This document shows positions 18,118 to 63,974 of a stretch of DNA of 64,000 nt, one piece after another. The notes under the pieces were generated by a model that saw nothing but the letters and a program-made list of their open reading frames with translations, was not told the origin of the DNA and did not search any database. Source of the DNA: a virus; the UHGV virus genome UHGV-1550212, one strand, 5' to 3'. Position 1 is the first letter of the stretch. Each line of letters starts with the position of its first letter. The position numbers and the translations under genes were made by a program.

Positions 18118-18146
18118 ATTGTACAACGCTTTGTGCACATTTGCAA
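18118..18146 (-). promoter_or_regulatory. Sigma70-like promoter (sense: TTGCAA-N17-TACAAT)
   Basis: Direct reading; upstream of sigma-like gene. Confidence 0.45.
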
Positions 18147-18155
18147 TCATAAAAA

Positions 18156-18179
18156 AGCTCAGCCAATTACGGCTGAGCT
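18156..18179 (-). terminator. Intrinsic terminator after 18206..19495
   Basis: AGCTCAGCC-AATTAC-GGCTGAGCT; A5 on plus = U-tract on sense. Confidence 0.55.
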
Positions 18180-18205
18180 TTCATTGAGATGCGTCTTGTC
18201 TGCCA

Positions 18206-19495
18206 CTATTCTTTTGGCAGAAGTTCAGCAATGCGTGACTGCAATTGCTCTTTCTGCTTCAAGTAGCTATCAAGAATTTGCTGATGAGCTGCATAGCCCT
18301 CTGATGTCGGGTCCATGCTCTGCATTGTTACTTGAACTGCAGCAATGTCTGATTCAACATTATTGAGCACTGTTTGATATGCATCAACTTGTGCAGATGC
18401 ACGAATTGCAGCTTTCATTGCAGTATCATAATGTTCACGCCACATTGACTTGATGCATTCGATTTCTGGTGTGCTTACAGAAATTGACTGCAATGCTGCA
18501 ATGAGTGCAACAATGCCGCCATACACTGTAATGATGCCAGACTGAGTATCAAGCATATTGAAGTGATTGCCATCAACTGCATATACAATGATAGGCGCAG
18601 ATTGCAGCTTAACTGAATTGTCGAGAACTGCAAGCTTTGTGAACTGCTGTGCTACTGCAATGACTGCATTGCAAATTGCCTCTGCAGTCTCAAATTCGCC
18701 AGCAACTTGCATGCTAACTTGATTGAGTTGCATATAAGTCTTGACTTTCTCAGCGAATTCAAGTGCAGTCATAACTTGTGAATCAAGCTCAACTGCATCT
18801 TGGCCAACAATGCGAACATGGCCGACAATTGTGTCAGCAAAGAATGCTTCAGTCTTTGGACAATACTGAACAAGTGATATTGCATTCATCAATGCGATAG
18901 ATTCTGCTGATGGCTCAGATGTTGTAGCATACAGCAAATTGCCATCAGACACAGTGAACCACTTGCCAACTACAGGCAGACCCATGATGTCACCTGCAAT
19001 AATTGCAAGCACATGCTGGCAATCACCTGTAGCAATGATGTGTTCGGGATTTGCTGCGTAGTAGATGTCTTTTGCCTGCTTAATGAGCGACTTCACCTCA
19101 GGGTACATGTCATAATTGTCAAGCACGCCATCAACTGCAATTGCTCGAATGATTGGCTCATCAGTTGATGCAACATCTACTGCATCTTCGATTGCTGACG
19201 CAGCCCTTTGCATATTTGCAGAGCCATCACTCATCAAATCCTCCATGACAAGTGATGCTTTGAAGCCAAAGCCATCTGCACCAATTGCTGTTTTCTGTGA
19301 TTTTGCAAATGCGCGTACAGCAGCATCTTTGCTATTTGCGGCGCTTTCCAAAATCAATGCAGCTTTTCGAAGAGTCAGACCAGACTTTTTGATTTGTGCA
19401 AGTGACTCATTGACAAAGTTTGCACCGCCAAAAGTCAATGCTTTGATGCCTTTGATACCTTGAACAAATGCATCAACGTTTACAGTATGTTTCAT
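18206..19495 (-). CDS. Hypothetical structural protein (429 aa)
   Basis: ATG start; Ala/Val-rich; next to Ig-repeat protein gene. Confidence 0.6.
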   Translation of the reverse strand: MKHTVNVDAFVQGIKGIKALTFGGANFVNESLAQIKKSGLTLRKAALILESAANSKDAAVRAFAKSQKTAIGADGFGFKASLVMEDLMSDGSANMQRAASAIEDAVDVASTDEPIIRAIAVDGVLDNYDMYPEVKSLIKQAKDIYYAANPEHIIATGDCQHVLAIIAGDIMGLPVVGKWFTVSDGNLLYATTSEPSAESIALMNAISLVQYCPKTEAFFADTIVGHVRIVGQDAVELDSQVMTALEFAEKVKTYMQLNQVSMQVAGEFETAEAICNAVIAVAQQFTKLAVLDNSVKLQSAPIIVYAVDGNHFNMLDTQSGIITVYGGIVALIAALQSISVSTPEIECIKSMWREHYDTAMKAAIRASAQVDAYQTVLNNVESDIAAVQVTMQSMDPTSEGYAAHQQILDSYLKQKEQLQSRIAELLPKE

Positions 19496-19502
19496 AGTCT
19501 AC

Positions 19503-20993
19503 TTATGCCTTTTTAGATTTGCGCTTTGCGGCAACTACGACTTCTGCTACGATAGCTTCTACAGTAGCTTCAGTTACAACAGACTTGTCTGCAACTTTTA
19601 CAAGAGCTGCATGCAACTTGTAGTTGCCGACTTTGCTGAAAGTGCACTTGAATTCTGTTGTTGCGTTGTATTCTGCAGGTACTGCAAAACCACTGTCAGG
19701 ACCCCATACACCAGTGTCTTCAAATGTCCAAGACTGTCCTTGTGAATCTGTTGCAGCGAATGTCACATGACCATCTTCAGGTGCTTCTACAATTTCATAT
19801 TGCAGCTGAACGCCATCAACACCTGCTTTACCAACGACTTCAGTTGCAAGTGTTGCATTGATTGCAACTTCTGTTGTAGGCTGAATACTTGCAGGGACAT
19901 CTACAGAAATCTTGTATTCTGACACTTCAGGCTGAACTGGCTCAGCAACAACTACTGTAGACTCTGCTTCAACAACTACACTGTCATCAGCAACCTTGGC
20001 AAGAACTGCATGCAACTTGTATGCGCCTGCCTTGCTAAAGATTACAGTGAACTTTGTAGTTGCATTGTATTCTGCTGGAATGTCAAAGCCTACTGCAGGA
20101 CCCCAAGTTCCATTATCGACGAATGTGTATTCATTGCCAGTTGTGTCAGTAGCCTTGAATGTCACATGACCATCTTCAGGTGCTACGTCCACGCCATAAC
20201 GGAACTGAACTTTGTCAACGCCGACGTCGCCAACAGTCTTCGTTTTGAATGTTGCATCAAGCTCAACTTCAGTGTTTTCGATTATTGTTTCAGGTGCAGA
20301 CATTTCGAACTCGTACTCAGACACTGTTTGTGCAGCTTGTTCAAGTTTGATGTTCTTTGTCTTGTTTGAACTCATAGTCTCACGACCAGCATGGCTAATG
20401 TAGCCCTCTTTAGACACTTCCCATACAATTTCTTCGCCTGACAAAACAGTCAACGAATTGCGAACTTCGCCATTCATCTTGATAACTGCATCTGCAGGTT
20501 CTACATTAATTGTCAGTGTAGCTTTGCTAAGCTTAACAAGCTCCACTACTTGAATGACATCATGATTTGTGAGCGTGATTGTGCCCTCCTGAGATTCATA
20601 GCCCTCTTTCGACACTTCCCACTTAATTGGAATGCCTGCGGGCACATTCTCAAGCATCTTTGTAGCCTCACCATTGATTTCTACATGAGCATCTTCAGGC
20701 ACTGGCTGAATTGTGATGCTGAACTTGTCTTTACCAGGTTCAGGGTCTGGTCCGGGTCCTGGGTCATCACCAGTAATTGCAGGGATGATAGTGTTTTCGA
20801 TGACTTTCTGAGCTTCTGCAGTTGTGCCATAGAATTTGAGAGTTTTCTTGGCTTCTTCTACAGACATCTTCTCAAGATTATCTGCAAGATATGTCAGACC
20901 AGTGACTGCAGCAATTTTCTGCCGCATTTCTGGGCTAATGACTACACCAGTAGATTTGACTACTGGAGCAGCTTGTTTTTGTTTCTTTGCCAT
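19503..20993 (-). CDS. Ig-like/beta-sandwich repeat protein (Hoc-like decoration protein candidate)
   Basis: Trimmed to ATG 20993 (MAKKQKQ). Two pairs of internal repeats: ...KWEVSKEGY.. x2 and ..VSEY.....APEDGHVTF.ATD......VPAEYNATT.. x2. Confidence 0.55.
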   Translation of the reverse strand: MAKKQKQAAPVVKSTGVVISPEMRQKIAAVTGLTYLADNLEKMSVEEAKKTLKFYGTTAEAQKVIENTIIPAITGDDPGPGPDPEPGKDKFSITIQPVPEDAHVEINGEATKMLENVPAGIPIKWEVSKEGYESQEGTITLTNHDVIQVVELVKLSKATLTINVEPADAVIKMNGEVRNSLTVLSGEEIVWEVSKEGYISHAGRETMSSNKTKNIKLEQAAQTVSEYEFEMSAPETIIENTEVELDATFKTKTVGDVGVDKVQFRYGVDVAPEDGHVTFKATDTTGNEYTFVDNGTWGPAVGFDIPAEYNATTKFTVIFSKAGAYKLHAVLAKVADDSVVVEAESTVVVAEPVQPEVSEYKISVDVPASIQPTTEVAINATLATEVVGKAGVDGVQLQYEIVEAPEDGHVTFAATDSQGQSWTFEDTGVWGPDSGFAVPAEYNATTEFKCTFSKVGNYKLHAALVKVADKSVVTEATVEAIVAEVVVAAKRKSKKA

Positions 20994-21084
20994 AAGATAT
21001 TGTGAATTTGGTTGTTTATTCTTAACAAAATATGTACATACAGATGCAACAGATGATATGTCAGATACACAAAGCTGCATAAAA

Positions 21085-21122
21085 TGACCAGACTTGCAAA
21101 TAAATTTAAGCAAGTCTGGTCA
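21085..21122 (-). terminator. Intrinsic terminator after DNA polymerase C-terminal gene
   Basis: TGACCAGACTTGC / GCAAGTCTGGTCA, 13-bp stem, AT-rich loop, A4 on plus. Confidence 0.5.
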
Positions 21123-21137
21123 TCAGTTTTGATTGCA

Positions 21138-22430
21138 CTACAACAATGACGGCACTCGTTGAGTTTCAAGTGGGTCGCTGACATTGATGCCTGTGTATGC
21201 AACAAGTCGTTGTATTGGGCCAAGTACGAGTTTTTCGAACATGAGTCGTTTGTTCATTGGCGGCACATCTGGCATATACTTCGGTGTCGGCATTTCGCCT
21301 GGTGCAAAGCCAAATGCATCGCAATATTGACGAGAGCCAATTGGTATATTTGACAAATCTGACTTTGCTCTGTCAACAAAGTAGTAGAACACTCGACCGC
21401 CTTCAATCAATGGGTATCGTGTTTCCAATCCATGTGCTTTGACAAGACAGTTATGCCAACAACATGCTCTATATTGAGGCAGTACACCTTTTGCTAACTG
21501 CCATTCACCATCATAGCTTAGCACATAGTCATGATACTTGTTTGCATTGACATATGCACAAAGTTTCTCCAAGTCTTGCTCGGCTTCAAAGCGTTTCCAT
21601 AATTTCTGTATGAGCTTTGGATATGTCGCAGAAGTTAATTCGCCTCTGAACATTTTCTTGAATGCATAATCAAGCATTTGTCTAACAAGCATTGACGAGC
21701 CTGTTTGAATAAGTTCGATGCCTTTGCCTTGAATGTGCTCAGTAGGGTCTTCGAATACTCGACCATCTACATATATTTGAGCCTTTAAGTACTTTTTCTT
21801 TTGGGCAAATAATGCAGTGTCAGAAATCGTTTCGAGGTCAAATAGCAAAATTGAATTGCCGTGGCGTTTTGCGAGGTCTGCTGCATATGCACCATTGAAT
21901 AACTCTTCCATACGATATTTGAATATCGCAAGAATCAAGTCATACCAATTTTTGCCTATGTAGCCAATTGATTTGACAGTTGGCTCAAAGTGAATGTACA
22001 AAGAGTCTGTATCAATGTACAACACTTTGTCTTCATAAGGCTCTTGCTTTGGCGACACAGACAAATCAAAATTGCCCTTCAATTGTGGGTCATTACGCAG
22101 CTTTTCATGCAATTCATAATCACACCACCACTTATTGTTGAGATAGTCATTTGCTACTCGTTCACCAAAGTGAATGAAGTTGCGGCCTTCAGCAGTAATT
22201 GATTCTGCAACTGCCATATTAAAGAAGTGATAGAAACGATTGCTTGTAGCGCCATATATTGAGTTTCGACAACATTTTGCTGAGACTTGCAGTCCTGCAT
22301 GCTTTAGTGATTCTTGCATTGCAAAATCTCTCAATTCAAATAGACGTTCAGTAGACAACTGGCTTAAATCACCAGTCAAATCTACTCCATCTATTTCAAT
22401 TTTTGACATATCTATCTGAGCTTCTGCCAT
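21138..22430 (-). CDS. DNA polymerase family B, C-terminal fragment (motifs B and C)
   Basis: ...CCRNSIYGATS (KxxxNSxYG) and ...VLYIDTDSLYIHF (YxDTDS); 430 aa; own promoter upstream. Confidence 0.85.
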   Translation of the reverse strand: MAEAQIDMSKIEIDGVDLTGDLSQLSTERLFELRDFAMQESLKHAGLQVSAKCCRNSIYGATSNRFYHFFNMAVAESITAEGRNFIHFGERVANDYLNNKWWCDYELHEKLRNDPQLKGNFDLSVSPKQEPYEDKVLYIDTDSLYIHFEPTVKSIGYIGKNWYDLILAIFKYRMEELFNGAYAADLAKRHGNSILLFDLETISDTALFAQKKKYLKAQIYVDGRVFEDPTEHIQGKGIELIQTGSSMLVRQMLDYAFKKMFRGELTSATYPKLIQKLWKRFEAEQDLEKLCAYVNANKYHDYVLSYDGEWQLAKGVLPQYRACCWHNCLVKAHGLETRYPLIEGGRVFYYFVDRAKSDLSNIPIGSRQYCDAFGFAPGEMPTPKYMPDVPPMNKRLMFEKLVLGPIQRLVAYTGINVSDPLETQRVPSLL

Positions 22431-22451
22431 AAGTTGTTTATTTTTGATTAA

Positions 22452-22481
22452 ATTGTACTACACATGTTGCAATTTTTGCAA
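22452..22481 (-). promoter_or_regulatory. Sigma70-like promoter (TTGCAA-N18-TACAAT)
   Basis: Direct reading; upstream of polymerase C-terminal gene. Confidence 0.45.
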
Positions 22482-22499
22482 TACACATGTTAAACCAAA

Positions 22500-22528
22500 A
22501 TGCAGCAGCAGATGTTCTGCTGCTGCAT
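22500..22528 (-). terminator. Intrinsic terminator after 22572..23399
   Basis: ATGCAGCAGCAGA-TGT-TCTGCTGCTGCAT, 13-bp perfect stem, T-rich sense downstream. Confidence 0.6.
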
Positions 22529-22571
22529 CGGCAGGTATCTTCACAATTGTTTGAGTTGATTGCAATGCGAT

Positions 22572-23399
22572 TTAGAATGGCAGGTCGCCATCATCACCTA
22601 CAGCATCAAAATCAGCAGCAATGTCATATACCAACGTCATTGCGATTCGCAAATCACGTTTCTTAGATTTCAGACGCATGATGTCATGACCTGAATTGTT
22701 TGTGATGACTGAGCATTCAAACTCTTCATTGCCGTCGATGAATGACAGCATTGATTTGTGAATTGTGATTGGCGACAAATCTGACGGATATGACGAATCA
22801 ATCACATATTCAAAGTTGTTGTTCTTGGCAATTAGGCCTCGTTCAGTTGTGCGAATCTCAATGCCGGGCAGTTCCTTGTCACCTGTATTCAATGAGCCAT
22901 ACGATGACATGATGCCAAAGTGATTTGACGTCAAATCGAGCTTTCTCAGATTTGTTGTGCTATCAAACAGCATTGACATATCATTGTCAGACAGCTCAAA
23001 GTAGCCAAGTGATGGCATTGAACAAACCTGATTGATTTTGAGCTGATTGTTTGAGATTACAATGAGCTCTGCAATTGTATCTGTACCAATTTGTTTGACA
23101 TAGATTTCAATCATTGCATATGAGCCAAATGCAGCAAGTACTCGATTGTTGAATTGCGTGCCATTGTAAATAAGCGCCTTGACTGTGACATCTTTGAGTG
23201 TAGACTCATAATGTTCGCAAATGTCAAGCACATTAAGTGTCTGCGACTTTACAAAGCTACTATTGCCAGCATCAGTTCTGATTCGCTGGTCATTGAGTGA
23301 AAAGCTAAGCTTGCCATCGCATTTTAATGATGATGCAAACAATGCTCGCAGCATATCAATGTTTGCATTGCGTAACGTAATTTTGTTCAGATTTTCCAT
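22572..23399 (-). CDS. Hypothetical protein (275 aa); possible sliding clamp
   Basis: ATG start; acidic C-terminus; size and location between polymerase halves; clamp assignment weak. Confidence 0.5.
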   Translation of the reverse strand: MENLNKITLRNANIDMLRALFASSLKCDGKLSFSLNDQRIRTDAGNSSFVKSQTLNVLDICEHYESTLKDVTVKALIYNGTQFNNRVLAAFGSYAMIEIYVKQIGTDTIAELIVISNNQLKINQVCSMPSLGYFELSDNDMSMLFDSTTNLRKLDLTSNHFGIMSSYGSLNTGDKELPGIEIRTTERGLIAKNNNFEYVIDSSYPSDLSPITIHKSMLSFIDGNEEFECSVITNNSGHDIMRLKSKKRDLRIAMTLVYDIAADFDAVGDDGDLPF

Positions 23400-23433
23400 C
23401 TTGTATCTATGTTGTTGATTTTCAATTTAATAT

Positions 23434-23462
23434 ATTGAACAACATTTGTTGACATTTTGCAA
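23434..23462 (-). promoter_or_regulatory. Sigma70-like promoter (TTGCAA-N17-TTCAAT)
   Basis: Direct reading; upstream of 22572..23399. Confidence 0.4.
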
Positions 23463-23467
23463 CATTG

Positions 23468-23842
23468 TCATCGATTGTCGCCTGACCCATGCAATACACC
23501 TCGCAATTTTCGAGACTGCAGTTTCTGAATGTTAAGCTGACAAATGTCAGTTAAGCTGTAGCCCAAATCATGTGCAAGAGTTGCAGCATACCACATGACA
23601 TCGCTGAGCTCTTTTGCGATTTCCTTGCGAATGTCTTCATTATCAAAATCACCATTCTTGTCTCGAATGACTTTTTTGACTTTGTCTGCAACTTCGCCTG
23701 CTTCACCCGTTAAGCCAAGTGTTGGATAGATAATTGCAGCTGATTTAGGATATACTGCGCTATCAAGCGCAGCAGTCTGATATTCATCAATAGTTGAAAT
23801 CCAAGTGTGGTCGATTACGCCGTGTTCATCTCGTTTAAGCAT
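23468..23842 (-). CDS. MazG-like nucleoside triphosphate pyrophosphohydrolase
   Basis: ...LTGEAGEVADKVKK...ELSDVMWYAATLA (MazG EExxE/D-type motifs). Confidence 0.6.
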   Translation of the reverse strand: MLKRDEHGVIDHTWISTIDEYQTAALDSAVYPKSAAIIYPTLGLTGEAGEVADKVKKVIRDKNGDFDNEDIRKEIAKELSDVMWYAATLAHDLGYSLTDICQLNIQKLQSRKLRGVLHGSGDNR

Positions 23843-23843
23843 A

Positions 23844-24335
23844 TCATTTACGTTTTTGTTTGACTCTTAATCGTTTTTGCATAAATGCTCTTGTAGCTTC
23901 ACCAAAAGCCATCTCGTCTCGTTCGCCACCACAAAGCTTTGCAAGCTTATTGAATGTGTCTTGGTCAATCATTGTGTACGTTGAGTTGTTGACCACATGC
24001 AATGCAAACTGAATCAGCGGTGCGCCTGGCTGCAAGCAGAATGGCTCTTTACCTGCATTGTACACTGCAAGATGAATCTCGCCATGATAGTCTGAATCTA
24101 CAAACTCACTTGTTTTGATGATAAGATGATTTCGTGAAATGCCCGACTTATTGTAGGCAATCAATGCATGACCGGCAGGCACAAGTGCTTTGATGCCAGA
24201 TGGAATTGCAATGCCCTCACCAGGTTGCAGCATTGTTTGCACAAAATCATTGGGTATGCAAAAGTCCCATGCGCCAGATTCTGCTGTTGACTTAAAAGGA
24301 CTTTCTACATTTCTGCATTTTGCAAAGAATAACAT
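23844..24335 (-). CDS. dUTPase-family protein (dUTPase or dCTPase)
   Basis: ...FVDSDYHGEIHLAVYN (dUTPase motif III-like). Confidence 0.6.
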   Translation of the reverse strand: MLFFAKCRNVESPFKSTAESGAWDFCIPNDFVQTMLQPGEGIAIPSGIKALVPAGHALIAYNKSGISRNHLIIKTSEFVDSDYHGEIHLAVYNAGKEPFCLQPGAPLIQFALHVVNNSTYTMIDQDTFNKLAKLCGGERDEMAFGEATRAFMQKRLRVKQKRK

Positions 24336-24358
24336 ATTAAGTATGTGTTTGTATGTTG

Positions 24359-24703
24359 TTAGTACATTTCTCGTTTAACAAGAGCTTTGCGTTTTGAGCG
24401 TAGCCCTGCCCTATTACGTAATTCTACTGACCAATCACGAATCATTTGCCATGCAATCCCACCACGTTGAATACCACCGTGCTTGAACATTTCATTGCAA
24501 ATACCTTGAATAAACACCGCATCAGACTTTGTCAATGCGTCAACAATTTGACCATGGTTGTCTTCTGTCTTGACATCATTGCAAAGCTTAAGCTCATCTA
24601 CTGAAAGTTCGCCAAGCAGCTCATAGTAGTATATGAGAGCTTTGCGTGCGGCAATTGCTTTTCTTGAATTGCCAGAATAAGACAAAGTCACATGTTTGCT
24701 CAT
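24359..24703 (-). CDS. Hypothetical protein (114 aa)
   Basis: Trimmed to ATG 24703. Confidence 0.5.
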   Translation of the reverse strand: MSKHVTLSYSGNSRKAIAARKALIYYYELLGELSVDELKLCNDVKTEDNHGQIVDALTKSDAVFIQGICNEMFKHGGIQRGGIAWQMIRDWSVELRNRAGLRSKRKALVKREMY

Positions 24704-24723
24704 ATTCAATTATTGTTATGGTG

Positions 24724-26229
24724 TTACAATTTGATTGCGCCTCTACGAGCAAGCTCTTCTTCAATCAATCGAACATGATTGTTAGCATACCAAAATTGCA
24801 ATTTTTTGTGATAATTGCGAACGTTGCCAAGCTGTTCTTGAGTTTCTTTATACATTGAAGGCTCTCTGTTGTCATACAGACAATTGTTGACTGACACAAA
24901 GTAATTTGGGTCTGCTTTGTAATGCTCAATTTCATCAGGATTTGTTAAACGTCTAATAAAGTTGTCTGGTGAAATATTCGCCGAGCGCATACTTGACGGA
25001 TACAATGAGTTTGCGTCAACACAGACAACCATACGAGCCCAATGGTTAAATGGTTGCTTAACAAAGCCGCCCTCAAATGAATGTACTACATTCTCTGGGC
25101 CACCTTGAGCACATACAACTTTGCCGCCATATTTGTTGTATAAGTATGTCATCATGACGCCCTCAGATTGCTTAACTGGTCCTTGGCAGTGATTCATGTC
25201 AATATTTGTCATATTTGACAATGACATCACATTTGATATCAAGTCAGTTTTTGCAGCAATCATTGCATTGACCATAGTATCGACAGCATTGTATGCAATG
25301 AATGTGCATGGATGATACAAATACAGCTCTTTAAGTGTGCAATCATAGGGCAACTTACCTACGCCGAACATACGATGTGCAATGTAGTCAAGTCGCAATG
25401 ATTCCTTTTGCCACACTGAATAGTCGTATGTGTCCATGAGCTGCATGTAGTCATCAATGTACTTGTGATATGGCATACCATTGCCCCAGACAGTTCTGCC
25501 AACTGGAGATGCCAATGCTAAATCAATATTGTGCATTGCGCATCGATTTTTGACATAGATGTTATCGAAGTCATTGATGTTCCAGCCTGTCAATGCAGGA
25601 ATGTTTTTGAAGAGCTTAGTCACCCAAAAATGCAACAATTCATGCTCATTTGCATGTTGAAAAATTTTGACAGTTGGATGTTCTTTCAAATACGCAGCAA
25701 AGCAATGTTGACCCATATACTCTTGAATGATGCCATTGACAAACTCAAATGCATCATCCAATGTTGGGTTTTGTTTGCCGCAGCTTTTGCGCAAATCATC
25801 ATCATTCAACAAGTCAACAGTAGTCTGAATGACACAATTGCATTGTTCATCGCATGTACTTATTGCATTAATGGGCATTTCAGCTTTGTCAGGCTTTGGA
25901 AAGCCATTGCCAATTTCAGTCTCAATATCGTAAAAGTACAACTTTGGTCTACGATAAGCAAACAATTCAGCTTTGTCAGCTTCAGGCAATTCAAATAAGA
26001 ATTGCAGCAAGTCAAATTGATTGAATCGTTTTGCTGTGACTCGAGTCACTGGCAATTTACGCCAATCTTGAATATCTGCATATTGAGGCTCTACGTGGTC
26101 TGATATTTGCCACACTGGAAATTGATATGGCTGTTCACAGACTGGGTATGTTTTGATGTCAATGCCACCTTGCTCATTAACATATGAGACTTCAATGCCA
26201 TGTGACAAATATGCTACGTCAACAATCAT
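24724..26229 (-). CDS. DNA polymerase family B, N-terminal fragment (3'-5' exonuclease + motif A)
   Basis: FYDIETE (Exo I), NINDFD (Exo II), YNAVD (Exo III), VDANSLYPS (motif A); 501 aa. Confidence 0.85.
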   Translation of the reverse strand: MIVDVAYLSHGIEVSYVNEQGGIDIKTYPVCEQPYQFPVWQISDHVEPQYADIQDWRKLPVTRVTAKRFNQFDLLQFLFELPEADKAELFAYRRPKLYFYDIETEIGNGFPKPDKAEMPINAISTCDEQCNCVIQTTVDLLNDDDLRKSCGKQNPTLDDAFEFVNGIIQEYMGQHCFAAYLKEHPTVKIFQHANEHELLHFWVTKLFKNIPALTGWNINDFDNIYVKNRCAMHNIDLALASPVGRTVWGNGMPYHKYIDDYMQLMDTYDYSVWQKESLRLDYIAHRMFGVGKLPYDCTLKELYLYHPCTFIAYNAVDTMVNAMIAAKTDLISNVMSLSNMTNIDMNHCQGPVKQSEGVMMTYLYNKYGGKVVCAQGGPENVVHSFEGGFVKQPFNHWARMVVCVDANSLYPSSMRSANISPDNFIRRLTNPDEIEHYKADPNYFVSVNNCLYDNREPSMYKETQEQLGNVRNYHKKLQFWYANNHVRLIEEELARRGAIKL

Positions 26230-26244
26230 ATATCATTATCTTTT

Positions 26245-26655
26245 TTAGAATAGAGATATTGTACAACAATTTGATTCAGGTTGCCATTCTACAATATGCG
26301 CATCAAAGTGTTTGTTAAGCCAATGTGCAAGTATGTGTCTATGACAAAATGCAGATAGTCTGCACCAACATAACAATACAATGTCTCGTTCGCCTGCAAG
26401 AATCTTTATGCGATGCAGCATCAAACTTATCTGTGACAATGCAGCGTCAAGTTTTGCTGCATATTGCTCTGCATATTGTGCATTGTCAAGCAAGCCTGCT
26501 TTATGCAAACGAACAAGTGACATGTAATCAGGCATGACGTCAGTCCATGTAAAATCTGCTATGAAGCCCTTAGGCTTTGTTGCAGACACTTGAACAAGAA
26601 ATGCGTTATCAGGCAGATGCCTGCATGCATAATATGAAGTTAAGATTCTTGTCAT
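26245..26655 (-). CDS. DUF488-like protein
   Basis: ...DIVLLCWCRLSAFCHRHILAHWL resembles DUF488 signature as recalled. Confidence 0.4.
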   Translation of the reverse strand: MTRILTSYYACRHLPDNAFLVQVSATKPKGFIADFTWTDVMPDYMSLVRLHKAGLLDNAQYAEQYAAKLDAALSQISLMLHRIKILAGERDIVLLCWCRLSAFCHRHILAHWLNKHFDAHIVEWQPESNCCTISLF

Positions 26656-27575
26656 TCTACAATAATTGTTGCAAGTTTGTTAATTGGCTGTATGAACACA
26701 TCAAAACCCTTAACAGTGCCGAACGCGTTTCGTTTGACTGCATATAACATTGCAGTGTTCACATCATGCTTTGCATAACGAGTTTCAATGACTTGACTGA
26801 TGTAGCCTTTTGAGTCTCGAATGTATTCTATGCTTGTAGCAATTTTGTTTGCTTTGATAGAATTTACTGTTATCAATGCATCATTCTGACCATACGCATA
26901 TTGCATTGTTGCTGTAGATGGCTTTGCAGCATTTACACTTAACTGCTGAATGACTTGCATTTTGCGACCATGCGAATCATAGTAATATGTGAATGTGCAT
27001 GGAAACTTGCCAACCAAACTGTTCAAATGATGCAACTGCTCATAATGATAGCTGAACTGCACTACACTGCTATTAGATTCGCAAATGCTGCTTGGTCTAT
27101 AGTAGCCATTGAAGTACCCATACTGAATTGAGTATGTTTCAAAACGACCTCTACGATACAAACTCAACAAACTAAGCATATTCGTCGCTTCATCAATATG
27201 CAAGAACTTGATGTCTGCGCATGCATTGCTCTTGGCATAATCAGCTGCATTCCACTTATCAACGACTTTCCAAGAGTAGCATTTGATGCTTTGATTGCGC
27301 TCATTGACAAAGTGTATACCATTTGACTGCACCTTTACAATGTCATAGCAATTCAAATGCCCATTACTGTCAATGAATTTTTGCAGCCAATTTAAAGCCA
27401 TGATGTTTGTTGCAAATGTCTGTGCAAATGCAATTTGGCCATCTGCAAATGCTGCAGTGTATGTCTTGTTCTTATCGTAGATTGGCAATGTCGCATCTGC
27501 ATATGATGCTGCTACAAATGCATAGCCAATCACATTATTCTCAGAACTCAAATTAGAGTGTCTTAACTGTTCCAT
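26652..27575 (-). CDS. Hypothetical protein (307 aa)
   Basis: ATG start, ATGA overlap. Confidence 0.6.
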   Translation of the reverse strand: MEQLRHSNLSSENNVIGYAFVAASYADATLPIYDKNKTYTAAFADGQIAFAQTFATNIMALNWLQKFIDSNGHLNCYDIVKVQSNGIHFVNERNQSIKCYSWKVVDKWNAADYAKSNACADIKFLHIDEATNMLSLLSLYRRGRFETYSIQYGYFNGYYRPSSICESNSSVVQFSYHYEQLHHLNSLVGKFPCTFTYYYDSHGRKMQVIQQLSVNAAKPSTATMQYAYGQNDALITVNSIKANKIATSIEYIRDSKGYISQVIETRYAKHDVNTAMLYAVKRNAFGTVKGFDVFIQPINKLATIIVE

Positions 27576-27772
27576 GTGCCATTACGCTTACGACGTTCAA
27601 TTTCTGCTTCAACGTCATCAATGTCGTGATTTATTTGAGCAAGACGAATGTCATTGTCGTACTCTTTAAGCAATTGTTCAAACAAATCTTCTTTGAACTG
27701 CTTCAAACGTTCATTTGAAAATGCTCTTACATTCATATCAAAGTCTACAGTCTTTTTCAAGTTTCTTGTCAT
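27563..27772 (-). CDS. Hypothetical small charged protein (69 aa)
   Basis: ATG start. Confidence 0.4.
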   Translation of the reverse strand: MTRNLKKTVDFDMNVRAFSNERLKQFKEDLFEQLLKEYDNDIRLAQINHDIDDVEAEIERRKRNGTWNS

Positions 27773-28307
27773 TTATGACTGCATTCAACAAATAATTGAC
27801 ATGCTTACATGAATGACGATACATAAAGCCTGGGCAATCACAATATGCTTGCATTGATTCAGGATATAACACAAGTACATGTGAATTGCCTCGTGAGCCA
27901 AAGACCTTGTACTTGACTGGCGCTGTTGGCATGCCAATCAAATTGTTAATGTCTTGTGAATGCCTGATATTATGCAGTTGTTTAAGTGAAACCCAGTGTT
28001 CTGCGGCTTCAGTAGCAGACATCAAATCAATGCCAAATGCTTGTTTGTATTGTTGTTTGCAAAACAATTGCCATTTGTGTGCATATACAGAGTTCTTTTG
28101 CAGCATCTCTTTATGCAACAAATACTCTTCAATGTATCTTGGCTGCCAACGAGTTGACCATGACACAAATTCAGGCACAAACTGAATGTCTTCAAGAGTT
28201 GTGCCTGCTGGTACAGAATGCCAAGCATCACCTGTGCATGCATAAGTACCGGTCGTTGTTACAATTATTGCCGGATTACATTTGCCAATGATTTGAATCT
28301 TGTCCAT
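27738..28307 (-). CDS. SWIM zinc-finger protein
   Basis: ...YCDCPGFMYRHSCKHV (CxCxnCxH). Confidence 0.5.
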   Translation of the reverse strand: MDKIQIIGKCNPAIIVTTTGTYACTGDAWHSVPAGTTLEDIQFVPEFVSWSTRWQPRYIEEYLLHKEMLQKNSVYAHKWQLFCKQQYKQAFGIDLMSATEAAEHWVSLKQLHNIRHSQDINNLIGMPTAPVKYKVFGSRGNSHVLVLYPESMQAYCDCPGFMYRHSCKHVNYLLNAVINDKKLEKDCRL

Positions 28308-28350
28308 CTTATTTATGATTTGATGTCTTGTTATATTATTATATGTTGAT

Positions 28351-28379
28351 ATTGTACAACGCTAAGTGTCATTTTGCAC
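28351..28379 (-). promoter_or_regulatory. Sigma70-like promoter (GTGCAA-N17-TACAAT)
   Basis: Direct reading; upstream of 27738..28307. Confidence 0.45.
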
Positions 28380-28548
28380 TATCGCCGCCAATTTTTATTG
28401 ATGGCGTTGCAAACAATGCAAGCAAACACCAGCCACTTTTAGTAACTGCACAAGCAACTGCTATTGCAGCAAAGAAGCTTGCATAAATGATTGCTGCAGC
28501 AAGCCAACTTGTTTTATCGCTACATTTGTTGTTCGATGAGTTCTCCAT
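28369..28548 (-). CDS. Small hydrophobic protein (59 aa), not in ORF track
   Basis: ATG 28548; MENSSNNKCSDKTSWLAAAIIYASFFAAIAVACAV...; stop falls inside the -35 box of the promoter. Confidence 0.3.
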   Translation of the reverse strand: MENSSNNKCSDKTSWLAAAIIYASFFAAIAVACAVTKSGWCLLALFATPSIKIGGDSAK

Positions 28549-28771
28549 TGATAATGTCTTTTCTGATGTAAACGCCCTTTAATGTTGGATGCTGCTGTAC
28601 AAATGTCATGTGACCAATAACATGCACTTTGTGATTTTTGGGCAGTACAATGCCATACTCGAATATGGCATGAGTATCTGTAAATCGTAACAGTTTTACT
28701 GGAGATGTAACACAATTGACGAAGTATAGCTTGCCAACTTGCGCATCTGCTGCTTTGATTTTGTCTTTCAT
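28520..28771 (-). CDS. Hypothetical protein (83 aa)
   Basis: Internal ATG of ORF 28520..28810. Confidence 0.4.
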   Translation of the reverse strand: MKDKIKAADAQVGKLYFVNCVTSPVKLLRFTDTHAIFEYGIVLPKNHKVHVIGHMTFVQQHPTLKGVYIRKDIINGELIEQQM

Positions 28772-28773
28772 TG

Positions 28774-29052
28774 TTATGCAATTTGAGTGCTGGCGTATTT
28801 TACTAGCCAAGCGTACACGTCATAATGAAAAATCTTCACATAATGTGGCATGCTAAAGCATTCACCGCAGCTACAATGAGCGTCAATATTACCTGTAATG
28901 ACATTGTACGTCAGCCGAACAATTTCATATGACTCAGAACCCATTTGACAATGCTGCTTAATGTCAATTGTTCTGCCAAATCGCTTACGAAACCATATTA
29001 CAAGCTGAGCATACAACTCATCAACGTTTGATGTCATTGAGCAATCTTTCAT
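28774..29052 (-). CDS. Hypothetical Cys-containing protein (92 aa)
   Basis: ATG start; ...HCSCGEC... Confidence 0.45.
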   Translation of the reverse strand: MKDCSMTSNVDELYAQLVIWFRKRFGRTIDIKQHCQMGSESYEIVRLTYNVITGNIDAHCSCGECFSMPHYVKIFHYDVYAWLVKYASTQIA

Positions 29053-29524
29053 ATGCGCAAGGATATTCAGGATTTGTCAGTATATGTTTGATGAACTGTT
29101 TAAGCTGCATTTTGCTGTCGAATGCTTGAACTGCAGGCTTGCCAACAAATTTGAGATATTTAATTGCTTCTTTAGCAAATTTGCCTGCAGAATTGCTGTC
29201 AAGCATTATGTATGATGTCAGAGTATCAATCATAAAAATGCTTCGCCAACTTGGTGCGCCGCAAATGACTTCTACTGCATTTCTGTTAGGAATGCGTCGT
29301 ACACGCACATTAAGAATAGTCATCAAGTCATTCCAAGATGCATCTCTGCATGTACATGGCTGCAAGTTCCGCTGACGTGTCATATGACACCAATACAAAA
29401 TTGTGTTTGCAGGCAATTCTGCTCGTTCAGCTTTGCTAAGCTTATGGCCATCTGCTGCATAGACTGCTTGTCTGCTAATTTGAACAGAGCTAAGCTTGCC
29501 TCGTTTGTGCGTAACTGCTACCAT
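29021..29524 (-). CDS. Hypothetical protein (167 aa)
   Basis: ATG start. Confidence 0.5.
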   Translation of the reverse strand: MVAVTHKRGKLSSVQISRQAVYAADGHKLSKAERAELPANTILYWCHMTRQRNLQPCTCRDASWNDLMTILNVRVRRIPNRNAVEVICGAPSWRSIFMIDTLTSYIMLDSNSAGKFAKEAIKYLKFVGKPAVQAFDSKMQLKQFIKHILTNPEYPCAYERLLNDIKR

Positions 29525-29916: not shown

Positions 29917-29931
29917 ATCTATTGATATTTG

Positions 29932-30168: not shown

Positions 30169-30199
30169 TGTAGTAGAGGTTTGTTGTGTTCTGTATATT

Positions 30200-30221: not shown

Positions 30222-30236
30222 ATATTATATATAGAT

Positions 30237-30265
30237 ATATTACAACACGCAAATCATTTTTGCAC
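30237..30265 (-). promoter_or_regulatory. Sigma70-like promoter (GTGCAA-N17-TAATAT)
   Basis: Direct reading. Confidence 0.4.
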
Positions 30266-30291
30266 ACTTTTATAAACCAAATTTCACAAAA

Positions 30292-30597: not shown

Positions 30598-30615
30598 GCC
30601 CTACAGCACAAAAAA

Positions 30616-43668: not shown

Positions 43669-43697
43669 ATATTACAACATTTGTTGTCAATTTGCAC
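43669..43697 (-). promoter_or_regulatory. Sigma70-like promoter (GTGCAA-N17-TAATAT)
   Basis: Direct reading. Confidence 0.4.
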
Positions 43698-43738
43698 AAT
43701 TGTTGTTAACAAAATGCATTACATTGACAAAAAAATAA

Positions 43739-43763
43739 AGGCTCAGTTTGTATAACTGAGCCT
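43739..43763 (-). terminator. Intrinsic terminator after thymidylate synthase gene
   Basis: AGGCTCAGTT-TGTAT-AACTGAGCCT; A-rich on plus. Confidence 0.6.
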
Positions 43764-43783
43764 CTTGAAATGACACGAACTTA

Positions 43784-47465: not shown

Positions 47466-47494
47466 ATAATACTACAATCAGCATACATTTGCAC
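47466..47494 (-). promoter_or_regulatory. Sigma70-like promoter (GTGCAA-N17-TATTAT)
   Basis: Direct reading. Confidence 0.4.
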
Positions 47495-48947: not shown

Positions 48948-48972
48948 ATTTTGGGATGTTTGTTTTTTATTA

Positions 48973-50067
48973 TCATACAACGATAGTATCTCGTTTGCAA
49001 TCTGTTTTGTCAAATATTGAACAACAATACGATGCAGATTGTTCTTTGATTTCAAGAGCTTCATCATTATCAAGTGATGAAATGCCATCTATGTATGCTT
49101 TTGCATTGCCAGCAATGTCATCATTTGTTAACAACGCTGCACGACGTTCAGTGCCAAAGAAGCCAAAGCACAATTGATGTTGCAGTGCTTCACGAGAAGT
49201 CTTGTCATCAAACTCTGATTTCATGTGTTGCATAAATTCGACAATATCATCAATGTCGCATTGAGTAAAGTCAATGCACAATTTATGCATGTACTTGAAT
49301 CGTTTGTAGTCTGTTGCAAGAATTTCTGGGTGCACAATGAACAACGTCTTTTTGCTGTCTATTGGATTTGCAATGACTGATGCTTGAACATAATCGACAA
49401 GCATACCAGATTCACGAAGTTGCTCAATTGTTTTGCCAAACACATGCCCAAGCGTGTCATCAAACCACTTCAAGTATGCTTCACTGTCTTCATCTTTTGA
49501 CGCGCCAACAATGTAAATCTCATTGACTCCAAGTGCTTTGAGACGAGTATCAGACAACATAGTATTCAATTGATGCTGCACGTACAGCATTGGGCTGCTA
49601 TGCAAAACCGTTTTAACAATCTCACAAGCAATGTCCATATATGCATAGTCAAGCTTTGCAGATTTTGACACATACACTGCACGTTGCTGCAATGGCTCAA
49701 TTGCCGAGCATGTAGTTACAAAGTTGCCAACACATTCTGCTACTGCAATGTCATGCAAGTCATCTGCAATGTACACAATACTTGACAAGTCATCAAATGT
49801 TTGAACAAGTTGCTGAAGCTTTGTTTTGTAATTGCAGAGCATCAATGACTTGATGTTGCAATTACTTAGCATTGTCTTGATGAGTCGTTGACCTGCTTCA
49901 GTGCTGTCACCAGAAATGACATGCACATCGCAGTCAAACCAGTTCAGCATGTCAATTGCATGCCGAACACCATATTGCATTTGTTTTGCAAACTTACCAG
50001 ATTCATTGAACAGCATTTCACCTGACATAATGCCGTCAAAGTCACATACGATTTGAAGTCTGTCCAT
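48973..50067 (-). CDS. HAD-superfamily phosphatase domain protein with C-terminal domain
   Basis: VCDFDGIM (motif I DxDG), VHVISGDS, IADDLHD. Confidence 0.55.
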   Translation of the reverse strand: MDRLQIVCDFDGIMSGEMLFNESGKFAKQMQYGVRHAIDMLNWFDCDVHVISGDSTEAGQRLIKTMLSNCNIKSLMLCNYKTKLQQLVQTFDDLSSIVYIADDLHDIAVAECVGNFVTTCSAIEPLQQRAVYVSKSAKLDYAYMDIACEIVKTVLHSSPMLYVQHQLNTMLSDTRLKALGVNEIYIVGASKDEDSEAYLKWFDDTLGHVFGKTIEQLRESGMLVDYVQASVIANPIDSKKTLFIVHPEILATDYKRFKYMHKLCIDFTQCDIDDIVEFMQHMKSEFDDKTSREALQHQLCFGFFGTERRAALLTNDDIAGNAKAYIDGISSLDNDEALEIKEQSASYCCSIFDKTDCKRDTIVV

Positions 50068-54358: not shown

Positions 54359-54360
54359 AT

Positions 54361-54402
54361 TCTAAATGAGATTTAGATTATGTTCGAAATATATGAGAAC
54401 AT
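54361..54402 (-). promoter_or_regulatory. Leader element (copy 3): TCTAAATGAGATTTAGA + ATGTTCGAAATATATGAGAACAT
   Basis: Immediately upstream of Mre11-Rad50 ATG. Confidence 0.5.
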
Positions 54403-54417
54403 ATATTATATGTTGAT

Positions 54418-54446
54418 ATTGTACAACATATGTTATCATTTTGCAA
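54418..54446 (-). promoter_or_regulatory. Sigma70-like promoter (TTGCAA-N17-TACAAT)
   Basis: Direct reading. Confidence 0.45.
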
Positions 54447-58164: not shown

Positions 58165-58193
58165 ATTGTACAACATGCAAAATGCATTTGCAT
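58165..58193 (-). promoter_or_regulatory. Sigma70-like promoter (ATGCAA-N17-TACAAT)
   Basis: Direct reading; proximal of a tandem pair. Confidence 0.4.
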
Positions 58194-58211
58194 TTTGATA
58201 CAACATGCATT

Positions 58212-58240
58212 TTGATACAACATATATTGTCATTTTGCAC
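58212..58240 (-). promoter_or_regulatory. Sigma70-like promoter (GTGCAA-N17-TATCAA)
   Basis: Direct reading; distal of tandem pair. Confidence 0.35.
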
Positions 58241-59039: not shown

Positions 59040-59068
59040 ACAGTACAACGTAGTTATGCTCATTGCAC
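59040..59068 (-). promoter_or_regulatory. Weak sigma70-like promoter (GTGCAA-N17-TACTGT)
   Basis: Direct reading. Confidence 0.3.
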
Positions 59069-61779: not shown

Positions 61780-62416
61780 ATGCTTTGCAATTATCTATTA
61801 CATGTTGATATTGTACTTCATCTATGATGTGATTTGCAATGACACCATATGACGTGTCATACATTGGCATCTTCTCATATGACAATGCTGCGTCAAGATT
61901 GCATATCACATAATTGCAATGCACAATGTCATCTACATTGTCACTAACTGCTACGATATTGACGCAATTTGCAAGAAATGCATCATCAAAGTCTACTTGA
62001 TTGCATGCAACCTCATAATCTGCAGCACTTCTTGGGTACCAATATAACTCAATGCCGGCACTACTAAGTAGTCGCAAGCCATCTATGTGATGATACAAGT
62101 CAACAAAATGCACTTGCTTAACGCCTGCTTGCAAAATAAGCTTTGCGCAATCAATGCATGGACTATATGTTACATATAGCACTGCGTCATTTGCAGTCGC
62201 ATTGCCATATTTGCACAGCTTCATCAATGCATTTGATTCTGCATGCAAAACTTCTTTGTTGGTTTTGATGCCTGCTGATGTTGCATGTTCACAACAATTT
62301 GACATGCCAGTTGGCATGCCATTGTAGCCATCTGAAATTATGCAGCCATCTTTTACAAGCAATGCGCCGACTTTTGCTCGCTGAGCATGTGAATTTAATG
62401 ACCAGAGCTCAGCCAT
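61751..62416 (-). CDS. dCMP deaminase
   Basis: HAESNAL (H-A-E zinc motif), SPCIDCAKLI (PCxxC); start chosen at MAELW (62416), ATG at 62476 also in frame. Confidence 0.75.
   Translation of the reverse strand: MAELWSLNSHAQRAKVGALLVKDGCIISDGYNGMPTGMSNCCEHATSAGIKTNKEVLHAESNALMKLCKYGNATANDAVLYVTYSPCIDCAKLILQAGVKQVHFVDLYHHIDGLRLLSSAGIELYWYPRSAADYEVACNQVDFDDAFLANCVNIVAVSDNVDDIVHCNYVICNLDAALSYEKMPMYDTSYGVIANHIIDEVQYQHVIDNCKAYEQTLHFEI
61810..61839 (-). promoter_or_regulatory. Sigma70-like promoter (TTGCAA-N18-TACAAT) inside 3' end of deaminase gene
   Basis: Direct reading. Confidence 0.4.
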
Positions 62417-62480
62417 TTTAAGATATATGAGATTTCGTTGAAACCACTTTGTTTCAGACCAAGTTAGCCATTTCATATGC

Positions 62481-63863
62481 TTATAGTGAATTTATGATTT
62501 TGCTGAAGTCTGTTACAATGTTTGAATGCAACTCAATGAGATAGTTGTCTTGCAATGTCATAAGCTCATCAAGTTCATCTACACTTAATGACTTGAAGAC
62601 TTCTGCACAATGCTTGGCATTTTTGATGTGTGCGACTTTATGATACTTGATAAAGTCAGGACACACACAATTATTCACGTACATACAAGGCAAGCCTGCA
62701 AGCATTGATTCAGTTGCTCTGAATGTAATTGCGTTGCATTGTTTCATATTCTCTTCACACACAATGTATGCAAAATCGAACTGTGACAAGTATGTTAACA
62801 TGTCAAAATACTTGATTGTGCCATCATAGACATGTGGCATATCAATGTCAATATTGCCGACAACATGAGTTTCGATGTCTGCGCAGCCAAGCAAATCAAT
62901 GACTTCTTGTTTGCGTTCAGCACACATGTCATTCCAAGCCACCATCGGCATTGCAGTAGTCAACTTGCCTGATTGCAATTTTGCTAAACGTTTTTCATTA
63001 TGTGATGCATACAATGGAATGCCTTCAAGTCTTGCATGCTGAATTGCGTTGACATTGATTTCTGTCAACATTGACAACGCATTATGTATGTTCTGCGCTT
63101 GTGTGACAACTGTCATCTTTTTGCAGTGCAATCTAAAGTTTGCAATGTGTGGCACGAGTCGTAAATCATACCATAGCCATACAATGTCGCCCTTCCATGA
63201 TTCAATGAGCTGCTTGTGCTGTTTGTAGATGACTGACTGACTCATCGAGTCATTCATTGCTGAGCATACAATGTACAACACACCATATTTGTCAATTGAG
63301 TGCTGCACATAGTCAGCTGAGCAGCATAGCACATCTTTGTCGAAAAGTTTTGGGTCATGCACTTCTGCATCATCTACAATAAGATGCGCCTTGTATTGAT
63401 GCCGCTTTGTTACATCAATGATGCGAGCAATTGCGAAACATTCTCTGCTTTGAATGTCTGTCTTGTCTTGTCGCAGCTGGTCTTGTGTTCGTACTGGATA
63501 CGCAGGTTTCAGTATTACAGGCACAAAATGTGTTTTTGCAGAATATGGTGCATCTACTGCAGCAAACTCCGCGTTGCATCGTTGTGAATGCAGATGTCGT
63601 GCATATGATTGCAACAATTCATGAATCATTGCAATATACTCTTCCAATTCAAACAGCTCGTGTTCAGTTGCGTTTGTTATGTCAACTACGACAGTTTGTC
63701 GCACAATTGGATACACACAAATAACGTAATCATTATATGGCAGTGGAATGCCTATAAATGTTGAGCATCTGTTTCGAAGCCATGCAATGCAATCAACATC
63801 AAACACAATTTCATATTGCTGCTGCAAAGCATTTAATTGCGCTATAATCAAATCATTGTGCAT
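62481..63863 (-). CDS. Glycosyltransferase-like protein (GT-B type), 460 aa
   Basis: ...ITFRATESMLAGLPCMYV (E...G.P motif). Confidence 0.4.
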   Translation of the reverse strand: MHNDLIIAQLNALQQQYEIVFDVDCIAWLRNRCSTFIGIPLPYNDYVICVYPIVRQTVVVDITNATEHELFELEEYIAMIHELLQSYARHLHSQRCNAEFAAVDAPYSAKTHFVPVILKPAYPVRTQDQLRQDKTDIQSRECFAIARIIDVTKRHQYKAHLIVDDAEVHDPKLFDKDVLCCSADYVQHSIDKYGVLYIVCSAMNDSMSQSVIYKQHKQLIESWKGDIVWLWYDLRLVPHIANFRLHCKKMTVVTQAQNIHNALSMLTEINVNAIQHARLEGIPLYASHNEKRLAKLQSGKLTTAMPMVAWNDMCAERKQEVIDLLGCADIETHVVGNIDIDMPHVYDGTIKYFDMLTYLSQFDFAYIVCEENMKQCNAITFRATESMLAGLPCMYVNNCVCPDFIKYHKVAHIKNAKHCAEVFKSLSVDELDELMTLQDNYLIELHSNIVTDFSKIINSL

Positions 63864-63892
63864 GTTCGTATTGTTTTATCATATATGAATAT

Positions 63893-63921
63893 ATTGTACA
63901 ACATGTATTGAGCTTTTGCAC
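63893..63921 (-). promoter_or_regulatory. Sigma70-like promoter (GTGCAA-N17-TACAAT), proximal
   Basis: Direct reading. Confidence 0.45.
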
Positions 63922-63945
63922 AACACTTGTTGTTAAAATATCGTC

Positions 63946-63974
63946 ATTGTACAACATAAAGTGCATACTTGCAC
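63946..63974 (-). promoter_or_regulatory. Sigma70-like promoter (GTGCAA-N17-TACAAT), distal
   Basis: Direct reading. Confidence 0.45.

Follow-up and report, generated by a model that had tools for sequence, protein, structure and literature searches.

A recurrent bipartite DNA motif, combining a (G/T)TGCAAA element with a TACAAT-like hexamer, precedes non-virion genes in a 64,000-nt stretch of the virus genome UHGV-1550212 (positions 1-64,000; hereafter the window), with its sites on the minus, i.e. sense, strand. Judged from sequence, these sites very probably constitute a functional class of sigma-70-family promoters acting before late transcription (pre-late promoters), whichever sigma factor reads them. 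They appear to form the principal class of promoters serving non-virion genes in an uncultured, T4-like gut phage, and our analysis files them as a lineage-specific, previously undescribed member of the T4-type early promoter/PeSL (promoter-early stem-loop) kind, with only some sites carrying a stem-loop. As such they would form an ordinary though well-defined phage promoter family, of which the mismatch with the presumed host phylum alone could prove notable.

A strand-specific bipartite motif

Scanning for the exact pattern [TGA]TGCAA-N17/18-TA[CAT][AT]AT returned 11 matches on the minus strand (the entries labelled 'promoter' in Table 1) and none on the plus strand; 200 dinucleotide shuffles averaged 1.2 matches and never exceeded 6. 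With a matrix trained on other genomes (see below) in agreement, the repeated motif pointed out in an initial annotation of this DNA is real and non-random. That annotation had listed 14 sites as fitting the pattern; 11 do so exactly, whereas the -10 hexamers at 23434 (TTCAAT), 58212 (TATCAA) and 59040 (TACTGT) exceed its degeneracy. In all three, the -35 element is retained, the spacing remains 17 bp and the independently trained matrix gives a score of 15-25 bits. The proposed N17 spacing is likewise right once the sites are brought into register, despite TGACA-like words inside the spacers.

A position weight matrix scan, which the initial annotation had suggested for the whole genome, was run on the window using a matrix trained on 19 sites, all from other genomes. 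It recovered each of the 14 listed sites plus four more (18 sense and no antisense matches; 0.86 per 64 kb in random sequence), namely 26258 (TGGCAA-N17-TACAAT), 48972 (TTGCAA-N17-TATGAT) and the weaker 36066 and 49016. A second matrix, derived from seven sites of diverged relatives only, gave 15 sense matches that included 12 of the 14. By comparison, a generic TTGACA/TATAAT scanner performed at chance (found/expected 60/57.9, 42/38.6 and 27/29.0), and the enrichment is thus specific to the TGCAA-type motif rather than a property of general sigma-70 look-alikes.

Alignment of 39 sites from five genomes yielded the consensus aaa.agTGCAAAttt...a...tTGT.GTAcaATattcAtata. Its upstream part consists of an A-tract near -41 and the -35 element (G/T)TGCAAA, followed by a spacer of variable sequence (mostly 17 bp, at some sites 18 bp, as in bipartite sigma-70 promoters) and an extended -10 element, TGT(T/A)G-TAcaAT-AT; CATATA is conserved around the expected transcription start. 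In line with a sigma-70-type -10, positions T-12 (38/39 sites), A-11 (37/39) and T-7 (35/39) are near-invariant. When the extended -10 was scanned for alone, almost all strong copies in the window proved to have a TGCAA-type -35 ahead of them, with a spacer of 17-18 bp.

Genomic context and conservation

Judged by its genes, the window belongs to a very divergent T4-like myovirus, with nearly all long open reading frames (ORFs) on the minus strand. Virion genes encode portal, sheath, prohead protease, head-tail adaptor and baseplate proteins, and the non-virion complement includes a split family-B DNA polymerase (PolB; 24724-26229 and 21138-22430), a Mre11-Rad50 fusion, a helicase, a thymidylate-synthase-like enzyme, dCMP deaminase, dUTPase/MazG and glycosyltransferases. 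All sites lie on the coding strand, in intergenic gaps or gene 3' ends. As initially claimed, they precede gene starts: the ATG of an ORF of at least 40 aa follows 16-82 nt after the end of the -10, except at the tandem pair 58212/58165, which is succeeded by small ORFs. The pattern is also missing from 1-17 kb, as had been noted, where just a weak look-alike with a 16-bp spacer occurs at 15768. Restriction of the motif to one half of the stretch, however, describes its distribution only in part; it is absent from 1-17.6 kb, but a second site-free virion module, with genes for head-tail adaptor and baseplate proteins, occupies 30.6-41 kb. Overall, ten of 14 non-virion gaps contain a site, compared with none of 15 virion gaps (Fisher p = 5e-5).

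Genes behind the sites function in replication, nucleotide metabolism, DNA modification and recombination, or encode a single-stranded DNA-binding protein (SSB), a tRNA cluster and a gp55-like late sigma factor. Bipartite architecture, 17-18 bp spacing, strand specificity and location upstream of non-virion genes bear out the suggested sigma-70-type promoter class. At 18118, 22452 and 43669, strong intrinsic terminators of 12-14 pairs lie upstream of the -35 (distances in Table 1). For the structural genes, a late-sigma-dependent class had been put forward. Here, the gp55-like gene is present behind site 18118, an arrangement that fits an early/middle-to-late cascade, but no late-promoter motif was identified.

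We propose that these bipartite promoters would be read by a sigma-70-family RNA polymerase holoenzyme, in the simplest case directly by the one carrying the host primary sigma factor. From established sigma-70 mechanics, sigma region 4 would touch the -35 element and regions 2 and 3 the extended -10, with T-12, A-11 and T-7 as key bases. Transcription would start ~7 nt downstream of the -10, resulting in leaders of roughly 10-75 nt, and transcription units would close at intrinsic terminators, several of which lie directly ahead of the next promoter. The two virion modules would presumably be turned on later via the gp55-like late sigma factor, giving a likely cascade from pre-late promoters through the gp55-like sigma gene to the virion modules. 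The sites would thereby allow the transcription units of this uncultured gut phage clade (~175 kb) to be mapped, with ~18 promoters in the window and >30 across relatives. Their consensus may be usable for annotating related metagenomic phages and could, after identification of the host, find use as a compact strong promoter.

The motif recurs in relatives. A ~95% identical sister genome (IMGVR_UViG_3300045988_149023; 175,564 bp) harbors 12 further sites, all sense, in 29 kb outside the window; at one of its loci (L108 8207-9393; contig 18554-31270), a promoter lies ~85 nt upstream of six tRNA genes (Gln, Pro, Leu, Glu, Thr and Gly). In the window's own record (ZEEV15-1_SAMEA3664939 scaffold_22), the 10 kb beyond the right end contain two further sites, one of them before a gp32-like SSB gene. 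Between window and sister, divergence amounts to 2.4% at core positions and 5.2% in spacer and flank (p = 0.045). Three long metagenomic contigs (L003, L006 and L008, with GC contents of 33%, 36% and 38%, respectively), whose PolB N-terminal homologues are 57-63% identical, possess the motif at gaps orthologous to those of the window, with stem-loops upstream of the orthologous sites. In alignment A2, covering the gap downstream of a ~1,100-aa gene, sequence is conserved from the A-tract to about +10 and the remainder is unalignable. As orthologous sites persist despite this level of protein identity and diverged spacers, selection seems to act on the boxes themselves.

More distant PolB relatives (<=32% identity; 82 loci, 1.2 Mb) gave two matches in total, indicating that the motif is clade-restricted, and a stringent version of the motif searched against 2.9 million viral contigs (IMG/VR) matched the sister contig nine times and every other contig at most twice. 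In several unrelated viral contigs (L217, L219, L226, L228/L223, L214+L230 and L208), CGTGCAAA-N12-TGTWGTATAAT occurs two to four times per contig with hairpins behind it, forming another stereotyped promoter family. A near-identical promoter architecture is thus used elsewhere and is likely read there by ordinary sigma-70-family holoenzymes. These contigs have a GC content of 40-51% and strong GGAGG-type Shine-Dalgarno sequences; attempts to anchor them to cultured phages failed.

Two pairs of sites in the window, 63946/63893 and 58212/58165, are arranged in tandem. With spacings of 28-53 bp, pairs of this kind are seen repeatedly in the window and in the sister genome, and the latter has one additional tandem promoter unit at the 54418 site. 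A -10-like unit is duplicated at 58189-58223 by a perfect direct repeat of 17 bp, present in 2.1 copies (TGTTGTATCAAAATGCA in minus-strand sense). The terminator stem at 22499-22529 is the same in the sister locus L127, with its loop inverted (AACAT vs. ATGTT).

Three promoters are followed by a conserved 5' untranslated region (5' UTR) module, AATATATGTYCTCATATAT(T)TCGAACATAAT, which folds as a pair of hairpins, of which the second directly adjoins the AUG (z about -3). The copies at 54359-54411 and 47408-47459, i.e. the leaders of the Mre11-Rad50 fusion and helicase genes, share a CTAAATCTCATTTAGAAT extension. From its sequence, the module could act as a common element controlling translation or stability. 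In four genes (ATGs at 43638 and 30168, and sister loci L095 and L055), ACCTCTAC(A/T)ACA stands directly before the start codon, a leader resembling the anti-Shine-Dalgarno (CCUCC) and not the Shine-Dalgarno sequence. An Rfam search of the window revealed no known RNA family.

Within the virion module, paralogous ~400-aa proteins are encoded at 16405-17604 and 10982-12220, with a third copy in the sister genome (L055). These feature DUF7487, repeated 'ERYG'-like motifs and weak homing-endonuclease matches, and a 30-bp tandem repeat (11000-11079) lies inside a paralogue gene. The left-edge ORF (1-646) ends in a long (PE)n tract, for which a 12-nt tandem repeat of 9.9 copies at 39-157 codes; an exact-protein look-up for this end of the window returned no record. 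A RuvC-like resolvase gene (7954-8622, plus strand) is the sole clear opposite-strand gene; the surrounding 7.9-9.2 kb are devoid of long minus-strand ORFs.

Table 1. Predicted promoter sites and associated features in the window
Feature	Coordinates	Strand	Remarks
Promoter GTGCAA-N17-TACAAT	63946..63974	-	Upstream partner of tandem pair, before gene 62481-63863; 23.3 bits (independent matrix)
Promoter GTGCAA-N17-TACAAT	63893..63921	-	29 nt to ATG at 63863
Promoter TTGCAA-N18-TACAAT	61810..61839	-	Within 3' end of dCMP deaminase gene; 30 nt to ATG at 61779
Looser site GTGCAA-N17-TACTGT	59040..59068	-	25 nt to ATG at 59014; 15 bits
Looser site GTGCAA-N17-TATCAA	58212..58240	-	Upstream partner of tandem pair; overlaps 17-bp direct repeat 58189-58223
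Promoter ATGCAA-N17-TACAAT	58165..58193	-	Pairs in tandem with 58212
Promoter TTGCAA-N17-TACAAT	54418..54446	-	Before Mre11-Rad50 fusion gene, ATG at 54358
Extra candidate TTGCAA-N17-TATGAT	48972..49000	-	New relative to the initial annotation; 19.9 bits
Promoter GTGCAA-N17-TATTAT	47466..47494	-	Before helicase gene, ATG at 47407
Promoter GTGCAA-N17-TAATAT	43669..43697	-	Terminator 43737-43765 lies 39 nt upstream
Promoter GTGCAA-N17-TAATAT	30237..30265	-	Orthologous sites in L003, L006, L008
Promoter GTGCAA-N17-TACAAT	28351..28379	-	43 nt to ATG at 28307
Extra site TGGCAA-N17-TACAAT	26258..26286	-	28 nt to PolB N-terminal gene; orthologous site in L006
Looser site TTGCAA-N17-TTCAAT	23434..23462	-	34 nt to ATG at 23399; 23.1 bits
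Promoter TTGCAA-N18-TACAAT	22452..22481	-	Before PolB C-terminal gene; terminator 22499-22529 lies 17 nt upstream
Promoter TTGCAA-N17-TACAAT	18118..18146	-	Terminator 18153-18182 lies 6 nt upstream; gp55-like gene 16 nt downstream
gp55-like late sigma factor gene	17601..18101	-	phrog_234, E = 2.5e-7; ATG at 18101; site 18118 upstream
Intrinsic terminator, 13 pairs	18153..18182	-	Directly upstream of promoter 18118; PeSL-like arrangement
Intrinsic terminator, 14 pairs	22499..22529	-	Upstream of promoter 22452
Intrinsic terminator, 12 pairs	43737..43765	-	Upstream of promoter 43669
Conserved 5' UTR module, two hairpins	54359..54411	-	Common to leaders 47408-47459 and 30180-30230

Host signals and alternative readings

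Megablast against cultured phages gave no nucleotide match, and inference of the host therefore relies on protein-level relatives and translation signals. The nearest cultured PolB relatives are the Chryseobacterium phages MA9V-1 and MA9V-2 (36%), Tenacibaculum phages, Sphingomonas phage PAU and Prevotella Lak phages. A scan of GTDB genomes for host clues returned just distant matches, in bins labelled Clostridia, Marinilabiliales and Firmicutes, and was uninformative in this respect. With regard to translation, Shine-Dalgarno sequences are as absent from the relatives (0/20, 0/23 and 0/14 genes) as from the window, and a cultured Chryseobacterium phage included as a control had them in 1/43 genes and displayed the same initiation signature. 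Such Shine-Dalgarno-less, A-rich initiation is the signature described for Bacteroidetes, whose primary sigma factor recognizes TTTG/TAnnTTTG with nearly invariant T-12, A-11, T-8, T-7, T-6 and G-5, and in which E. coli-type promoters are reported not to be expressed (PMC6847099).

Several points weigh against the proposed class of sigma-70-family pre-late promoters, in its simplest form read directly by the host primary sigma factor. None of the 37 window genes has a Shine-Dalgarno-like word, and initiation regions are enriched in A at -12 to -14 (A-13 in 76%) and depleted in G. The motif shares T-12, A-11 and T-7 with Bacteroidota promoters but has A-8, A-6 and T-5; given this mismatch and the Bacteroidota-like translation, direct reading by the host primary sigma is not assured. 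A search for a late-promoter motif before the virion genes showed T4 TATAAATA to be absent from the window and just a weak enrichment of ATAAAC. Moreover, promoter function is argued from sequence context and conservation, and early/middle timing from gene content.

Bacteroidota boxes (TTTG-N17-21-TAhhTTTG) were not enriched on the sense strand in ~110 kb of clade sequence. Conversely, when the window's motif was sought in the Chryseobacterium phage MA9V-1 (L002, OR050627.1 90343-131818), different motifs were found instead. An intergenic class, TTTTCATATGTCG-N10-TTAAATTTA, resembles the Bacteroidota -33/-7 arrangement, and a second class (class B) comprises a terminator and then TTTGTATAATACAT-type elements that are like the extended -10 half of the window motif without its -35. 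Prompted by these class B sites, we looked ahead of the window's virion genes for extended -10 copies that lack a -35 and found none. A literature search for this hexamer pair in Bacteroidota phages also found nothing. The mismatch between promoter and translation signals implies either that the host is not a typical Bacteroidota member, in which case the clade's host assignment would be wrong, or that a phage factor redirects the Bacteroidota RNA polymerase in an undescribed way. That the clade infects Bacteroidota yet uses E. coli-like pre-late promoters, and hence possesses an unrecognized phage-supplied specificity factor, appears rather doubtful from the sequences; it would imply a cryptic sigma, an injected factor or MotA/AsiA-like appropriation with the TGCAAA box.

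More generally, the sites may be middle-type promoters that need a phage specificity factor because the Bacteroidota host sigma A is unable to read them. This reading, which we consider possible though on balance unlikely, refines that of sigma-70-family pre-late promoters, as the sites would still be promoters and just the holoenzyme would differ. Candidate factors include a phage sigma-70-like sigma, an injected protein or a MotA/AsiA-like activator, the last acting on the TGCAAA box with host sigma region 2 on TAcaAT. Consistent with it are the Bacteroidota-like translation signals in the window and all relatives (PMC6847099), the Bacteroidota hosts of the nearest cultured relatives, the different, Bacteroidota-like -33/-7 motif of the related MA9V-1 and the lack of T-8, T-6 and G-5 in the motif. 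T4-like 'group 2' jumbo phages are reported with sigma factors, some of them RpoD-like (PMC7824862), and Prevotella Lak phages carry a sigma-70-like sigma. Furthermore, the -35 box of some sites falls within an inverted repeat (GTGCAAA..TTTGCAC) of the kind that a dimeric binder would require, and arrays of TGCAA-rich direct repeats occur upstream of promoters in relatives. On the other hand, Pfam searches and annotations revealed no Sigma70, MotA, AsiA or anti-sigma in the window, the 29 kb of the sister genome or the 10-kb flank (L207), nor did a tblastn probe with RpoD regions 2-4 match the sequences examined (~100 of 175 kb, a coverage that leaves room for such a factor). A second, host-type promoter class that could express the factor first was not found in ~110 kb, and the motif precedes small ORFs and tRNAs besides replication genes, like an earliest class. 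Its box is positioned at the canonical -35 spacing and not at the MotA position of -30, and near-identical promoters exist in unrelated, Shine-Dalgarno-using phages.

Compared with pre-late promoters read by a sigma-70-family holoenzyme, the remaining explanations account less well for the sites. Quite improbable is that these are PeSL-like mobile or recombinogenic cassettes shuffling gene modules, their spread reflecting duplication and not selection for transcription. The terminator-promoter arrangement would suit this explanation, as would sub-families of sites having spacer words (such as TGCAAAATGACA) and entire 5' UTR modules in common, the tandem duplicated units with the additional one at the sister's 54418 promoter, and the PeSL precedent itself (PMC2839356, PMC4122927). 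PeSLs being promoters, however, it is compatible with promoter function; adjacent stem-loops accompany just three of ~15 window sites, and the orthologous sites at 57-63% protein identity with diverged spacers speak for selection on the boxes. The initial annotation had further raised the possibility that a palindrome embedded in the motif, TTGTACAA, binds a regulator. Indeed, TTGTACAA occurs ten times in the window (2.7 expected), seven of these within sites. As an operator bound by a dimeric regulator, with only a secondary likeness to promoters, the conserved core is nevertheless a very remote prospect: the palindrome is intact in just 9/39 sites from the five genomes, GTAGTACAAT, which prevails in relatives, breaks the symmetry, and the element is coupled to a -35 box at fixed spacing. 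T-12, A-11 and T-7 are kept rather than their symmetric partners while the palindrome varies, so that conservation follows the logic of a -10 and not that of an operator. The suggestion of a regulator-binding site is thus not supported, and TTGTACAA is, by its pattern of conservation, apparently incidental. Hardly credible, finally, is the idea that the complementary strand of the motif presents a Bacteroidota -7 box (GTGCAAA being the reverse complement of TTTGCAC) driving plus-strand transcripts. TTTGCA(C/A) is similar to the 3' portion of TAnnTTTG plus the CA that comes after it in Bacteroides promoters, but the required TA four bases before TTTG is present in just 1/11 sites and the spacing to the TTG of ATTGTAC is ~14 bp instead of ~19. 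Downstream there are no plus-strand genes, the long ORFs being on the minus strand, and the conservation pattern matches a minus-strand -10.

Comparison with known promoter systems

In T4 middle promoters, a MotA box (TGCTT) is centered at -30, 11-13 bp from the -10, and the sigma factor is appropriated by AsiA/MotA. The window's sites are similar in combining a TGC-containing upstream box with a TAnnnT -10, in serving replication and nucleotide-metabolism genes and in preceding late-sigma expression. Their box, in contrast, reads TGCAAA and lies at -34 to -29, 16 bp from the hexamer (canonical 17-bp hexamer spacing), and the assignment was rejected on both box sequence and position. T4 late (gp55) promoters were dismissed as well, since the -35 is obligatory here, TATAAATA is lacking and the motif is absent from virion modules, as were T7-like single-subunit promoters, the motif being bipartite with a variable spacer and no RNA polymerase domain having been found. 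Gram-positive '-16 region' or extended -10 promoters follow TRTGnTATAAT; while T-17, G-16 and T-15 of the window motif resemble the TRT of TRTG, its conserved G is at -13, abutting the hexamer, and not at -14, and there is a strong -35 in addition.

Promoters of the Bacteroidota primary sigma factor (sigma A, sigma ABfr) share T-12, A-11, T-7 and an AT-rich spacer with the window's motif, and the phage initiation regions match the phylum. However, A, A and T replace T-8, T-6 and G-5, and TGCAAA stands at -35 geometry. As the consensus TAcaATAT does not conform to the -7 box, this class was rejected, too. The -33/-7-like motif seen in MA9V-1 is missing from the window's clade.

The closest parallel is offered by T4-like phages, in which lineage-specific sigma-70-like early promoters reside in terminator-promoter cassettes, with consensuses such as TTGACA-N17-TATAAT, TTTACW-N17-TAYWAT and TTGYVH-N17-TAWWAT (PMC4122927, PMC2839356). 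PeSL cassettes go along with ORF insertion, deletion or replacement between close relatives, for which the additional tandem unit at the sister's 54418 promoter offers an anecdotal parallel. Departing from these, the -10 in the window reads TAcaAT, with C at the third position, and is preceded by TGTnG; Shine-Dalgarno sequences are missing at the 3' end of the sites (0/37 genes), an adjacent stem-loop is present at 18118, 22452 and 43669, most other window sites lacking one, and the host is probably not a proteobacterium. Traits common to the two are the bipartite structure, the N17 spacing, AT-rich sequence upstream and a highly stereotyped, lineage-specific consensus. Non-structural genes are preceded by numerous copies that all point the same way, tandem or duplicated units occur, and some sites in the window have a terminator stem-loop directly upstream. 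The TTGCAA of the window even fits TTGYVH, the -35 consensus of phages nt-1 and KVP40.

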